DNA from: Longimicrobiales bacterium
Lineage (GTDB): Bacteria; Gemmatimonadota; Gemmatimonadetes; Longimicrobiales; Gaopeijiaceae
Reading direction: 5' to 3'
NCBI GenBank assembly: GCA_965198065.1
Contig: CBDAON010000003.1
Location: forward strand, 1-64,000
DNA length: 64,000 bases
Position 1 is the stretch's first letter. The number at the start of each line of letters is the position of its first letter. Shown piece by piece: positions 41,708 through 60,486 of the stretch. The notes under the pieces are model-generated. The model made no database searches and had not been told where the DNA came from. It saw nothing but the letters and a program-made list of their open reading frames with translations. A program made the translations under genes and the position numbers.

Positions 41708-43774
<2,067 letters not shown>

Positions 43775-56488: not shown

Positions 56489-56636
56489 CCCCGCATAATA
56501 TAGGGGATGGAGGCGGATATCAATGGATGTTGTGAGCGGAGTGCGTTGCTAGTCTATGCTCGTAACTTACTGTTATAAAAGTCAGTTATGGACTTAACTG
56601 CGAACTGTGTACTTGACGCAAATACGGATACCTTGA

Positions 56637-57056
56637 ATGGGTGACAGACCGGCGCATCCACAGGTTTGGGCAAGAGTGAACGCCCATGTAGATGAAGGTG
56701 TGGCGGATCTCATATCCGCCCTCTCAAGATTCAAGGGCCTACGTACCCTCGAAAGCTGTCAGGGTGAGCCAGACGGTGCGGCCTGGGCATGCTTCGTGGT
56801 GGGAGCAAACGTGGGGTGGAGGCCGCTAGCGGATCTCGTGTTGGGTTACCTGGGACCGGCTTTGGCCTCAGACCTTGGAGACATGGTGGACCTTTCGATT
56901 CACGCTACGGAAGCGGGCGGGGCGCAGGGAGAACTCACGGTGCGCTCGGAAGCGATGAGCGACACCGTGAGCCTCCTGCTCACACTATCGGCTGATTGGC
57001 AGCCTAGAGCGGCTTACCAAACGTGCGAGTGTTCTTGTGACACGTCTTACACATAG
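56637..57056 (+). CDS. Hypothetical protein (transposon cargo)
   Basis: 139-aa ORF containing VDEGVADLISAL...TLESCQG; family not identified with confidence. Confidence 0.6.
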   Translation: MGDRPAHPQVWARVNAHVDEGVADLISALSRFKGLRTLESCQGEPDGAAWACFVVGANVGWRPLADLVLGYLGPALASDLGDMVDLSIHATEAGGAQGELTVRSEAMSDTVSLLLTLSADWQPRAAYQTCECSCDTSYT

Positions 57057-57234
57057 CCAACAGGTTTCCGAGGCCGTCACCGCCACCGCGGGTGCGGTGG
57101 TGGGCATGCCAGTCGGAACCGTGCAACCCGTGCTTGCAACGACCAGTGTGGTGCGAGCACACCGACATGGTGCACTCGCAACGTCCGCCTGCACGAATAA
57201 AGAGAAGGCGTCGAGTATCATTGGAAACAGCCAT
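57004..57234 (-). CDS. Small HNH endonuclease
   Basis: RAGGRCEC...HAHH...GGGDGLGNLLAMCKTCH; RBS GAGGA. Confidence 0.8.
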   Translation of the reverse strand: MAVSNDTRRLLFIRAGGRCECTMSVCSHHTGRCKHGLHGSDWHAHHRTRGGGDGLGNLLAMCKTCHKNTRTFGKPL

Positions 57235-57294
57235 TGTAATGCGTCCTCGATTTGGAAAATGAATGTGAATGAAAGCACGTTTCAAAACGCCTTC

Positions 57295-57342
57295 TTAAAC
57301 GACGTTTTAAACGACGCATTAAATGGCGTTTTAAGAGCACTT
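57295..57342. repeat. Four tandem degenerate 12-bp repeats
   Basis: TTAAACGACGTT TTAAACGACGCA TTAAATGGCGTT TTAAGAGCACTT. Confidence 0.7.
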
Positions 57343-57405
57343 TCTTTTCGTGATTCTTTTCCTCGACGCAATTACACGATATACTTTATCTGTAAATGCG
57401 TGAGG

Positions 57406-57508
57406 TGCGGACGGCCGGAGTCGAACCGACACGGGGCGTCAAGGGTCCGAGAGAACCCGCCCCACCAGCTTCCAAAGCCAGCGTGTTTACCAGTTTCGCC
57501 ACGTCCGC
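57406..57508 (-). tRNA. Non-canonical tRNA: Leu-like type II body, anticodon TGG (Pro), ~34-nt variable region
   Basis: Acceptor GCGGACG/CGTCCGC plus A73; D region GGCGAAACTGGTAAACAC; anticodon arm CTGGC-TTTGGAA-GCTGG; T arm GTCGG-TTCGACT-CCGGC. Confidence 0.85.
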
Positions 57509-57570
57509 CAAACGCCTGGGGGCAGCCTTACGGCCACCCCCAGGAAGACCCCGGTTACGGGGTTAGGATT

Positions 57571-57582
57571 TTATGGCGGCAT
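57571..57582 (-). other. SD-led minigene ATG CCG CCA TAA (Met-Pro-Pro-stop)
   Basis: AAAGGAG-atcacc-ATG CCG CCA TAA, followed by hairpins at 57548-57563 and 57515-57544. Confidence 0.7.
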
Positions 57583-57662
57583 GGTGATCTCCTTTCTGGC
57601 GTGTCAGCGCCGGTTAGGGTGAGTGGTGCGCCCCCATCGTCGGAAACGGCGGTGGGGGTCTG

Positions 57663-58127
57663 CTATTCTAGTCCACCGATCTCCTCTTGCTGTGCACCTC
57701 CCGGCCTCGTCCATTCTCGGAGACCGTATTCGCCGGTATCAACCCGAATGAACTGGCCACCCTCCTTGTGTGATCGTCGGAGCATAGCGCCGAGGCTGTT
57801 GGCTAACTTCCTTCGGCCTTTCGCATACGGAAGTCCACGCTTCAGTAATGCGTCGGCGATATCTCGTGGTTGCATCGGTTGGCGGACCTCAAGCAAGCAG
57901 GACTCAGCAACCCCCTGTAGGGTAAGGCGGGGATTACTGTACCGACCGCCGTTAATAGACGGGGGTGCCTCGGACGCCTCCTCGGTTATGGTAGCCGGTG
58001 CTTGCGCTTCGGGTTCGCTCAGGTACTCGAACAGTATCTCTCGCGTGTTGCGGAGCTTGCGGGCGCGAGCTTCGTGGAATTGGATATCGCGATCAAGTCG
58101 CTGGATTAGGTCCATGTCGCTGGGCAT
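57663..58127 (-). CDS. Coiled-coil plus winged-HTH (HARE-HTH-like) protein
   Basis: N-terminal heptad segment; PMQPRDIADAL...FIRVDTGEYGLREW. Confidence 0.7.
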   Translation of the reverse strand: MPSDMDLIQRLDRDIQFHEARARKLRNTREILFEYLSEPEAQAPATITEEASEAPPSINGGRYSNPRLTLQGVAESCLLEVRQPMQPRDIADALLKRGLPYAKGRRKLANSLGAMLRRSHKEGGQFIRVDTGEYGLREWTRPGGAQQEEIGGLE

Positions 58128-58269
58128 GTTCGCATCCTACCCTAAAGGGGTTAATGTGACCGAAGTTAACGGCAGCGTGCGATCTTTGCTAGGGTGTAGT
58201 GAGGACAACGCGACGACAGGCCGATCTTGCTTGTGGAATCAGTGTTAATCGTATTATAGGAGGACCCAT

Positions 58270-58461
58270 ATGGAGGCCGAAGAAAAGCCGACACCGGACA
58301 ATAAGAAAACCGGTCCTGACGCAGATCGCGTGAAGCTCGAAGGAGACTGGGAGGATGCGGTGAAGAAGGCCCTGAAAAAGAAAAAGCCCCCCGAGGGCTG
58401 GCCGCAGGAGGACGAGCAGAGCGGGGAGTCTGTCAGTGATTCAGGATCGGACAGAGACTGA
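58270..58461 (+). CDS. Small charged protein of the kind seen beside IS1595 transposases
   Basis: Strong RBS AGGAGG; RVKLEGDWEDAVKKALKKKKPPEGWP. Confidence 0.7.
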   Translation: MEAEEKPTPDNKKTGPDADRVKLEGDWEDAVKKALKKKKPPEGWPQEDEQSGESVSDSGSDRD

Positions 58462-59193
58462 GTGCCAGCCACCTATCGAATGCGTGTGTGCCCTTACCAC
58501 TGGCCCGAGTTGCTGGTCGAAGCGCTTAAACCGGGGGTTGTTCATGCGCCTGTACCAGTAGATCGCTGCGATGGTTCTGCCGATACCGTCTGCCGCTTGA
58601 ACCCCATGATACCACTCCGACGGTACGAGGAGGGGGATCTCTGTAACGCGAGCGTCGGCTGTCCGAAAAACAGGGTCCGAGTAAATAAGACTCTGAGCGG
58701 ACGCAAGAACGCGCGTATTCTGAGTCTCGGTGCGGCGGTCCATTATCACCACCCCCCGGCCCACACGCGATCCTGCTTTGTCGTTAAGATATTTTTCAAA
58801 CCTACGCAGTGTACTTTGCATGAGGCTGGTATAAAGCCCGGAGTAGGAGTGGTTCGCACGAGTAGAGTCTTTCTTGACTCCGTTTGCAAAAACGGCGCCA
58901 CCGCACGAACCAACCAACCCGAGCACCTGAGATATAAAGCGGATGTCGCGTCGCGTTCTGAGCGTCTTCGCTTCAAAGCGTTCCGGGCGGATACCGTGCA
59001 AGGTCTTGGCGCGAGATATTTCCCTGCTATAGAAACGACACTTCAAGCGGAAATAGGACCGGTCGAAGTCACGCCACCGTTCGCCAGGAATGACAAATCC
59101 CGCAAAACCGAAAAGCGGGTGGTGCTGGTGTCGCGGATCGGTGGGATCATAGGGGCCTGGATGACCGAATTCATCGAGGTAGAGAAGGTACAT
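58441..59193 (-). CDS. DUF3800 domain protein (predicted RNase H-like fold)
   Basis: MYLLYLDEFGH N-terminal motif, IMD, and C-terminal SEWYHGVQAAD. Confidence 0.88.
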   Translation of the reverse strand: MYLLYLDEFGHPGPYDPTDPRHQHHPLFGFAGFVIPGERWRDFDRSYFRLKCRFYSREISRAKTLHGIRPERFEAKTLRTRRDIRFISQVLGLVGSCGGAVFANGVKKDSTRANHSYSGLYTSLMQSTLRRFEKYLNDKAGSRVGRGVVIMDRRTETQNTRVLASAQSLIYSDPVFRTADARVTEIPLLVPSEWYHGVQAADGIGRTIAAIYWYRRMNNPRFKRFDQQLGPVVRAHTHSIGGWHSVSVRS

Positions 59194-59199
59194 GGAGGC

Positions 59200-59290
59200 A
59201 TGCCCCGGTACAAAATACACAGAGCCCGCGCCGAAGCGCGAGCCCTGGGGAACTGCTTGACCCAAGCATCCGGAGACACAAGGGCTGGCA
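59200..59290 (-). ncRNA. Candidate structured RNA leader upstream of DUF3800
   Basis: Hairpin TGCTTG/CAAGCA; CAGGGCTCGCGC-TTCG-GCGCGGGCTCTG followed by TGTATTTT. Confidence 0.55.
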
Positions 59291-59384
59291 GTATTACAAC
59301 AGATTGCTATACACAGTATAGCCTGTCAAGGATCCCCTTTGAAGGACTCCTGGGTACTCCTGGGTACTCTGGGGGGAACTTGGT

Positions 59385-60365
59385 TCATGGATGACGATAC
59401 ATGAGCCGCTTCCCCTCGGAGCCCCGGATAGCGGTCTTGATCCTTTCTCCGTCGTCAATCTTGCGAGTATTCCACCGAAACTCGAACTCGGACACGTAAC
59501 GGTGCAGATGCTCTTTGCTGACGTGGTGGAAGGTCCCCATGACGCCCCTCTTGAGAAGGGCAAAGAACCCCTCAACGGTGTTCGTTGTGGCGAGCACGTC
59601 CCCGTCCATGCGTGCATACTCGTTCTGCGAGTGACGAACCGTGTGATGCCCGTTGGCAAACTCGCGTCCCACTGGTATGTAATGCCTGGCTTCGTCAGTA
59701 TGGAGCCGAGCCGCTTCTGGGTCCACGTTCTCCCGAAGGTTGCTAGCGAGGTTCGCAGAGGTCACGTTCGTTACGACCTTGGCGCGCGCCTCTCCGTCCC
59801 GCTCGACGATGGCAATGACGGGCGTCTTGTTGTCCATACGGCGAAACCCACGCGGACGACGCTTCCCGCGCACCGAGCGGGGGCGGATTTTTCCACCGAC
59901 GAAAGCTTCATCCGCCTCGACATCGCCAGTAAGTGGACCGCCCGTGTTGGCTGCACCATTCATCGCGTATCGGACCCGGTGCATGAGGAACAAGGCGCTC
60001 TTGTACGTGAGGCCGGTTTGCCGTTTGATCTGCAAAGCGGACACGCCCTTCTTGCTGGAGCACGCCGCCCAAAACGCAAAGCACCAATGCCGCATGGGAA
60101 TCCGGCTGTCCTCCATGATGGTTCCGATGCGGACCGTGAACTGACGGGCGCACCCACGGCACCGCCAGAGGTACCGGGCGTTCCGCTCACCGGTATTCCG
60201 ATCCTTCATCATGTAGACATCGACATCGCCACAACGGGGGCACGACGGCTCCCCCTCCCAGCGCATGTCTTCGAGGAATTCGACCGCTGTGTCTTCGTCG
60301 GCACAGGCCATTGGGATGGCCCCGACGATGTCCGATTTATCGCCCGCGATCTTCGACATTTTCAC
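59385..60365 (-). CDS. IS1595-family transposase
   Basis: Zn ribbon CPRC..CRGC, KGVSALQI HTH, VEADEAFVGG, HTDE, NTVEGFF and HLHRYVSEFEFRWN motifs. Confidence 0.95.
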   Translation of the reverse strand: MKMSKIAGDKSDIVGAIPMACADEDTAVEFLEDMRWEGEPSCPRCGDVDVYMMKDRNTGERNARYLWRCRGCARQFTVRIGTIMEDSRIPMRHWCFAFWAACSSKKGVSALQIKRQTGLTYKSALFLMHRVRYAMNGAANTGGPLTGDVEADEAFVGGKIRPRSVRGKRRPRGFRRMDNKTPVIAIVERDGEARAKVVTNVTSANLASNLRENVDPEAARLHTDEARHYIPVGREFANGHHTVRHSQNEYARMDGDVLATTNTVEGFFALLKRGVMGTFHHVSKEHLHRYVSEFEFRWNTRKIDDGERIKTAIRGSEGKRLMYRHP

Positions 60366-60486
60366 TCACCTTTGGAGGCTTGAATTCACACTCTAAAGAT
60401 AAGGGATGTACGTGTTTGCGTCAAGTATCTAGTTCCGACTTAACTGGACGATACTGTACACCGGTCCAGATAGTCTGCCCATTCCT

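Follow-up and report, generated by a model that had tools for sequence, protein, structure and literature searches.

The question raised by this locus is what a minigene of four codons, two hairpins and a tRNA with a proline anticodon on a leucine-type body might do together as cargo of a transposon. The window, i.e. the whole stretch of 64,000 nucleotides that was analysed, carries the module on the minus strand, and the positions given for its elements in the earlier note proved exact. A Shine-Dalgarno sequence (SD, 57589..57595) is followed after a 6-nt spacer by the minigene ATG CCG CCA TAA, encoding Met-Pro-Pro-stop (57571..57582), then by a first hairpin (57548..57563), a second hairpin of 13 bp with a GUAA loop (57515..57544) and, after a gap of 6 nt, a tRNA gene (57406..57508) with the anticodon UGG at 57474-57472. 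The first hairpin is present, but its fold has a stem of 6 bp and a 4-nt loop (57563-57548) in place of the 5 bp and 6-nt loop that had been described. One more hairpin on this strand (57631..57658) is placed by fold and coordinates directly after the stop codon of the winged-helix gene upstream. The leader has a fold z score of -4.75, and none of 200 shuffled sequences reached the same stability. The SD-Pro-Pro-stop motif has one match in the window and 14 of 100 window shuffles also have one; in the window alone it is not rare enough to convince. The minigene stop codon is covered with zero differences by a DNA contig (run X1) and by two contigs from RNA libraries of another study (X8, X9), and is thus not an assembly error. 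On the minus strand, the stretch from the winged-helix gene to the tRNA showed no promoter or U-tailed terminator. Three AT-rich repeats spaced by 12 nt, which form an inverted pair (57285-57332), separate the tRNA from the HNH-like ORF and are a possible operator or promoter.

The module belongs to a transposon of the IS1595 family with passenger genes, 3.8 kb in size (56601..60436), which is delimited by inverted repeats, an empty site and GC content. The arms of the inverted repeat are 33 nt long (56594-56626 and 60411-60443), a 10-bp direct repeat flanks the element (56591-56600 and 60437-60446), and the exact ends are uncertain within 10 bp. Members of the IS1595 family typically make an 8-bp target duplication. 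The joint of the empty site, 56590 to 60437, is present in run X1 and in run X4 from another study, and in X1, which may be the source sample, the depth is 95.5 at the joint and 8.7 for the element. A paralogous empty site is located on contig C4, the GC content is 57% in the transposon versus 67% in C4, and the element is single-copy in the assembly. The transposase of 326 aa (59385..60365, minus strand) contains an ISXO2-like DDE domain (PF12762, E 1.6e-35) and a zinc ribbon (PF12760, E 2e-11), which are found here together with the terminal inverted repeats, the target duplication and the empty site of an IS1595 element, presumably of the ISXO2-type subgroup.

The passenger genes on the minus strand are a DUF3800 gene (58441..59265, PF12686, E 1.4e-08), a gene for a winged-helix protein with a C-terminal HARE-HTH domain (57663..58127, PF05066, E 1.1e-06) and a small HNH-like ORF of 76 aa (57004..57234, PF01844, E 0.041, below the cut-off). 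The plus strand has a 139-aa ORF of no known family (56637..57056), with a homologue beside the HNH gene in the related locus L160, and a 63-aa ORF (58270..58461), divergent from the winged-helix gene and matching no Pfam family, with a Lys-rich Pro-Pro stretch and tblastn hits in 11 of 114 related loci among the matches listed. A layout similar to that of the winged-helix protein is found in 19 hand-picked upstream ORFs with 13–25% identity, and it is a candidate repressor of the cassette. A protein search with this ORF matched only itself, and the 291-nt module, compared as DNA with 151 genomes, gave outside its own genome just three weak matches of about 40 nt. PADLOC recognised none of the winged-helix, DUF3800 and small ORFs. 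An HNH homologue is found in one of the 114 loci among the matches listed, 80 of these having long flanks; the HNH-like ORF is no constant partner of the RNA module, its link to the module was rejected, and the proposed control of read-through into this gene is not supported. Elsewhere in the window Rfam detects group II intron domains (41708-43748, minus strand).

The tRNA scores 41.4 bits on Rfam RF00005 (cut-off 29) and is missed by default ARAGORN. It is a class II tRNA of the 7/5 type, with a 7-bp acceptor, a 5-bp T stem and a variable region of 34 nt, and it has A73, A15-U48, G18G19, A20a, G1-C72, G3-C70 and A37; the D stem contains a C11-A24 mismatch, and the CCA end is not encoded. According to the available text of PMC9976931, whose rules derive from E. 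coli, leucine identity lies in A73, A15-U48, G18G19 and A20a, the anticodon not being read by LeuRS, and proline identity lies in C1-G72, G15-C48 and G37 besides G35, G36 and A73. Judged by these E. coli rules the window tRNA has the marks of a bacterial tRNA-Leu, and it lacks those of tRNA-Pro, with G1-C72, A15-U48 and A37 in place of C1-G72, G15-C48 and G37. It is therefore likely to receive leucine and to decode proline codons, a prediction from sequence. The host has three Pro and five Leu tRNAs of its own, and CCA is its rarest Pro codon (7.9%).

A search of GTDB genomes with a pattern for a Leu-type D arm combined with UGG gave at least 114 loci, with about 150 estimated (locus numbers are preceded by L). 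29 of the 114 were dropped by eye, being intron-bearing ordinary Leu genes, integration-site remnants or single odd copies, and at least 85 were kept, from Acidobacteriota, Pseudomonadota, Planctomycetota, Verrucomicrobiota, Gemmatimonadota, Chloroflexota and other phyla. An IS1595 transposase adjoins 45 of the 61 kept loci with long flanks but only 1 of 19 dropped ones, among the matches listed. The letters of the D loop and the anticodon are fixed by the search pattern and thus no evidence. Positions 73, 48 and 72 lie outside the pattern, and in the 78 copies readable by the parser (77 loci among the matches listed, and the window) A73 is found in 75, U48 in 77 and G72 in 7, with C1-G72 in 6. 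When the window copy was aligned with 39 of the 77 readable loci, 97.9% of the cells were paired and 21 of 24 pairs showed a compensatory change; by this covariation the fold is under selection, and the charging is predicted from the marks it carries. When loci were anchored on the transposase, with the anticodon unselected, Pro anticodons dominate among the long-arm cargo tRNAs, accompanied by a few copies with UGC, GGA, UUA, CAA, GAG and GUC, and UGG is also found on Ser-type and short-arm bodies. A scan of viral contigs for AGG, CGG and GGG anticodons gave four loci, two of them already known and two without an IS1595 transposase.

Other irregular tRNAs were seen along the way. Ochre-anticodon (UUA) tRNAs on Ser- or Leu-type bodies are present in L020:1430-1625, L351:5189-5804, L046, L069, L084 and L096, and two of these loci adjoin IS1595 transposases. 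Polycistrons of irregular tRNAs (L242:3397-3804, L018:93-272, L236:3771-3934, L243:44-232, L154, L222, L138) contain Ser bodies with CAA, GAG or UGG, Arg-like bodies with GCU, and short-arm UGG bodies. In viral contigs (L052, L055, L059, L068, L071, L087, L095, L100 and others) a Leu-like D arm is combined with a GUU (Asn) anticodon in 15 matches; many of these start with U, and they are perhaps a phage tRNA-Asn type. In L384:5149-5331 the ends of a Leu-type tRNA are located around a long insertion, with an IS1595 transposase adjacent.

For the minigene, SD-led ORFs of at most 6 codons with Pro-Pro were sought at most 200 nt upstream of 84 tRNAs. Among the matches listed, such a minigene precedes 12 of the 84 (shuffle mean 0.14, maximum 2 in 500), one starting with two AGA/AGG codons precedes 5 (shuffle mean 0.016), and 67 have neither type within 200 nt. 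The same scan found none in the 29 dropped loci, in 54 viral tRNAs with a Leu body and other anticodons, or in 12 viral Pro-anticodon copies. The forms are MPP, MPPP, MKPP, MKPPP, MRKPP, MEPP and MPPPSS. Two further Pro-Pro minigenes were reached from the transposase side (L239, L324) and, one locus reached by two routes being counted once, the 12 among the matches listed, these two and the window give 15 leaders in about 12 unrelated sequence groups. In addition, L397 has a Pro-Pro minigene downstream of a degenerate tRNA, and L318 a Pro-Pro-Pro minigene with a hairpin and no tRNA. Over the whole transposase-anchored loci there are 12 Pro-Pro minigenes versus 5–11 in 10 shuffles, which is chance level, indicating that the signal is positional. 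The commonest codon is CCG, 16 of the 37 Pro codons, where the host CGG tRNA competes. Roughly one element in seven carries the minigene as an extra. Of the conservation that the earlier note had asked about, recurrence of the SD-minigene before homologous tRNAs is borne out and universal presence is not, and the suggested co-variation of minigene codons with the anticodon does not hold in strict form, as among these matches UGG tRNAs stand behind Arg-Arg minigenes or behind neither type. The pairing of a Pro-anticodon tRNA with a minigene recurs in unrelated bacteria, and the tRNA therefore likely puts leucine at proline codons.

The five Arg-Arg cases (L156, L160, L164, L166, L169) are SD-led ORFs of four codons reading Met/Val-Arg-Arg-X-stop, with AGA/AGG codons and hairpins, 113–133 nt upstream of the tRNA, and show the layout of archaeal CreT in proteobacterial loci. 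No cargo tRNA with an Arg anticodon was found in these five loci. As an AGR-AGR minigene fills the same place in 5 of the 84, the slot seems to take toxin-like minigenes. A structured spacer of 100–150 nt with similar stem ends separates minigene and tRNA in L126, L136, L137, L153, L184, L204, L214 and L239, and in those loci that were scanned Rfam found no family besides tRNA.

The codon usage of the transposase follows the tRNA. The window transposase has CCA codons at residues 18, 144 and 326, which are all three signature sites of the family, namely residue 18 (CCA in 27 of 31 Pro), the linker before the first catalytic motif, and the site after GKRLxY (36 of 37 Pro). At the conserved prolines 40, 43, 90, 160 and 182 CCA is rare (0–3 of 30–45). 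In 51 elements with a tRNA, 28.6% of the 584 Pro codons are CCA, versus 10.6% of 539 in 61 elements without, one of which was later found to have an AGG tRNA; the A-ending codons for Ala, Thr, Val and Gly show no such difference. In the transposase-anchored set at least two signature CCA codons are present in 22 of 24 UGG elements versus 5 of 47 without, the signature sites having been defined on a set overlapping the test set. Three AGG-anticodon loci from two lineages have CCU at the signature sites and no CCA under one definition of the site windows; under a second definition two of the three count one CCA. Five elements chosen by CCA before the upstream DNA was seen all had a Pro-anticodon tRNA upstream (three intact UGG, one degenerate UGG and one CGG), and two of nine other stretches in the same comparison had UGG tRNAs. 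CCA-bearing elements showing no tRNA are L021, L029 and L036. A test on six independent pairs, taken from a quick tree, gave three with the link and one against, or with other windows about four with and none against (p 0.125), which is not significant.

In tRNA-free relatives the codon three places after the Tyr of GKRLxY ends in T in 34 of 54, against a GC3 of about 0.69, whether it encodes Pro, Ile, Thr, Ala or Ser, and a constraint at the DNA level is therefore possible. Position 18 in 39 tRNA-free homologues is D in 9, A in 8, N in 4, L in 3, with others in the rest, and such variable residues at the signature sites point to selection on the codon. The thought that signature CCA must become Leu because homologues need Leu was rejected, as position 18 varies and no Leu/Pro column emerged. 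Across the family the job of the tRNA is probably to decode CCA codons kept at tolerant sites of the transposase.

Two sponge metatranscriptome runs of one study (X8, X9) each contain one contig bridging minigene, hairpins and tRNA with zero differences (57405-57628 and 57416-57623, depth 3.6 and 6.5). In both the depth bins are zero over 56541-57386 and 57669-60347, an uncovered part that is no evidence, and runs X5–X7 hold just short pieces of relatives. The contigs reveal neither strand nor termini, and DNA may be carried along in an RNA library; they place the module in RNA libraries without proving a discrete RNA of 220 nt.

What is observed comprises the layout, the transposon, its transposase with CCA at fixed sites, the family of tRNAs and the repeated occurrence of the minigene. 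The reading that we tentatively favour on these is an RNA cargo of IS1595, in which a CreT-type stalling minigene would be checked by a leucine-charged tRNA reading proline codons, and the wider role of this tRNA would concern the transposase. A single RNA would start downstream of the winged-helix gene or be produced jointly with it, and cleavage by RNase P at the 5' end of the tRNA would leave an SD-minigene RNA with a protective 3' hairpin. Ribosomes would stall at Pro-Pro-stop, host LeuRS would charge the tRNA, and leucine at either Pro codon would lift the stall, so that the cell would be poisoned if the tRNA or continued expression of the cassette failed, e.g. by phage attack on tRNAs. 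Insertion of leucine at proline codons would disarm the toxin and probably also tunes the transposase. With LeuRS marks present and ProRS marks absent the antidote would recode Pro to Leu rather than refill tRNA-Pro, and of the toxin/antidote pair proposed earlier the CreT-type toxin layout is retained and the refilling of sequestered tRNA-Pro is dropped, the tRNA body being of the leucine type. The main results against the favoured reading are the Arg-Arg class, which a tRNA reading Pro codons cannot defuse, and the large number of tRNAs that have no minigene; with 5 of 84 behind Arg-Arg and 67 behind neither among the matches listed, a strict toxin-antidote pairing is disfavoured. The L318 minigene without a tRNA, the CCG-rich minigenes and the D-stem mismatch of the window tRNA also count against it. 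A tRNA usually outlasts an mRNA, which is the wrong way round for classical addiction.

Instead of a toxin, the minigene could be a cis-acting leader that meters the tRNA, pairing with its 5' strand and blocking its folding or processing unless a ribosome stalls; the leucine-charged tRNA would shorten the stall, and this feedback would limit the mistranslating tRNA and tie transposase output to translation stress. We hold this to be unlikely, if worth serious weighing. With the footprint of a stalled ribosome blocked, the modelled probability of the window acceptor stem rises from 0.00 to 0.87, but C-rich Pro codons pair readily with G-rich tRNA in any case. Similar pairing is predicted in L182, L206 and L208, whereas 11 of the 15 Pro-Pro leaders show no modelled rescue and in L137 the footprint lowers tRNA folding; as a family rule the pairing was rejected, being found in just 4 of 15 loci. 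The leader would fit the location of 15 of 16 tRNA-linked Pro-Pro minigenes 51–149 nt upstream of the tRNA, the minigenes of L126, L137, L153, L182 and L184, which overlap the final codons of the ORF before them, and the uncut leader-tRNA contigs in RNA libraries, but Arg-Arg leaders would not sense a UGG tRNA, and the L397 minigene lies downstream. The sensor in the earlier note survives in this modified form, with control of tRNA folding modelled in the 4 loci and control of the HNH gene unsupported. Slightly less likely again is that minigene and tRNA are two independent translation poisons, silenced by the winged-helix protein and serving abortive infection or addiction, the tRNA being no antidote. 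Two CreT layouts swapping in one slot whatever the anticodon, several other mismatched tRNAs in cassettes, and a winged-helix-like ORF upstream in many loci agree with this, as do the missense allo-tRNAs, whose induction kills E. coli and which sit near toxin-antitoxin genes (PMC5389517, available text). The transposase codons speak against two poisons because they track the anticodon, which suggests a working role for the tRNA, and so do the leader-tRNA sequence in RNA libraries and the lack of PADLOC matches given above.

We consider it improbable that the tRNA is charged with proline and refills a tRNA-Pro pool drained by the minigene, as a sequestration/antidote pair. The tRNA does have G35, G36 and A73, used by ProRS (PMC9976931, available text), six of 78 family members among the matches listed have C1-G72, CCA is the rarest Pro codon of the host, and tRNA oversupply rescues archaeal CreT in the accessible account (PMC8501985). 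Yet the window copy combines a long variable arm with G1-C72, A15-U48 and A37 where proline marks would be G72, G15-C48 and G37, the Pseudomonas toxin, as far as the preprint is available, works without rare codons, and three Pro tRNAs are already provided by the host. Most improbable of all is a chance or vestigial, untranslated feature of the spacer. The motif appears in 14 of 100 window shuffles and most family members are without a minigene, but 12 of 84 against 0.14 expected, in unrelated leaders and always with SD, frame and stop, argue against chance, as does its absence from all 29 dropped loci and all 54 viral tRNAs with other anticodons, both among the matches listed.

A wider version of the favoured reading is a private IS1595 code, in which the cargo tRNA would put leucine at CCA, the transposase would keep CCA or CCU so that its output depends on the tRNA, and the minigene would be both a sensor and a toxin disarmed by recoding. 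This is a doubtful proposal, but if true it would be an all-RNA toxin-antidote pair whose antidote acts by mistranslation, and a likely source of the CreT toxins taken up by CRISPR loci. CreT-type minigenes are here placed outside CRISPR loci on mobile DNA in many phyla, which offers a source for them. The module gives a direct handle on the mechanism of the proline-codon toxin, since nature here supplies a tRNA expected to turn Pro-Pro into Leu. The matching codon retained by the transposase is also a first explanation, open to test, for the presence of mismatched tRNAs in transposons, which has lacked an answer since 2017. Cultured carriers among the matches are Mesorhizobium sp. M1322 and Sphingomonas sp. 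JC676.

Among known systems the closest to the minigene is the CreT 'proline-codon toxin' of P. aeruginosa (Wang et al., bioRxiv 10.64898/2026.06.02.729485, a 2026 preprint). In its available text the arrest of P. aeruginosa exceeds five logs and requires the SD, the mini-ORF of 15 nt, the GC hairpin and both Pro codons before the stop, with Ser and Leu mutants named in a legend. A 3-nt deletion after the ATG, which leaves Met-Pro-Pro-stop, is still toxic, added spacing ahead of the hairpin is tolerated, the hairpin protects the RNA, and no rare codons are used. The window module shares the SD, the two consecutive Pro codons directly before the stop and the GC-rich hairpin, and the claimed likeness to CreT is upheld by this tested layout, as the source describes it, and by the recurrence of the minigene before homologous tRNAs. 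The Pseudomonas toxin is located in a type I-F cas locus and silenced by the CreA guide, with no tRNA gene described in the available text, whereas the window minigene is in a transposon without cas gene or CRISPR repeat and next to a Pro-anticodon tRNA. Haloarchaeal CreT (Cheng et al. 2021, PMC8501985) has in the accessible text the same SD, start codon, two like codons and stem-loop, and the four-codon AGR-AGR minigenes of five related loci among the matches listed have the Haloarcula layout; there, a rare host tRNA is drained under CRISPR repression, whereas the window has Pro codons and an adjacent tRNA with a mismatched body. The window module has the SD, the mini-ORF of two like codons and the downstream hairpin of CreTA. 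No cas gene is present among the ORFs of the element, and the host CRISPR arrays are on contigs C1 and C4. Three host repeats match the element at best in 16–18 of 28–29 positions, at which a very degenerate CreA could escape, and the 43 host spacers fit 57561-58300 no better than they fit control stretches. Control by CreA was rejected on this comparison of repeats and spacers, and the module, CreT-like in build but with no cas gene, repeat or matching spacer, is not CreTA.

The tRNA is closest to the allo-tRNAs (Mukai et al. 2017, PMC5389517), which in the available text share the long arm, the mismatch between anticodon and identity and the vicinity of transposon or toxin-antitoxin genes, and mistranslate in E. 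coli. They have an 8/4 or 9/3 branch and Ser or Ala identity, where the window tRNA has 7/5 and Leu marks, with A73 and G3-C70 in place of G73/U73 or G3:U70. The available text of PMC5389517 mentions no link to minigene or transposase codons, no UGG tRNA, no IS1595 and no ISXO2, and the presence of allo-tRNAs near transposons has precedents there and, in its available part, in PMC7609411. In the openly accessible literature nothing was found on the UGG family, IS1595 minigenes or the codon link. Other natural tRNAs with mismatched body and anticodon are reportedly the Streptomyces tRNA-ProA/ProX, which are said to act in the reverse direction by putting Pro at other codons, and the eukaryotic nev-tRNAs of nematodes; to our knowledge neither is transposon cargo with a minigene. 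With other IS1595 elements that carry passengers (family assigned by Pfam) the element shares the ISXO2-type DDE transposase with zinc ribbon, the terminal inverted repeats, the short direct repeat and the passengers. The parts of the system, CreT, allo-tRNAs near transposons and passenger-carrying IS1595 elements, thus have precedents, and the window element differs from other IS1595 elements in that its cargo is a translation-acting RNA cassette and the codon use of its transposase tracks the anticodon of the cargo tRNA.
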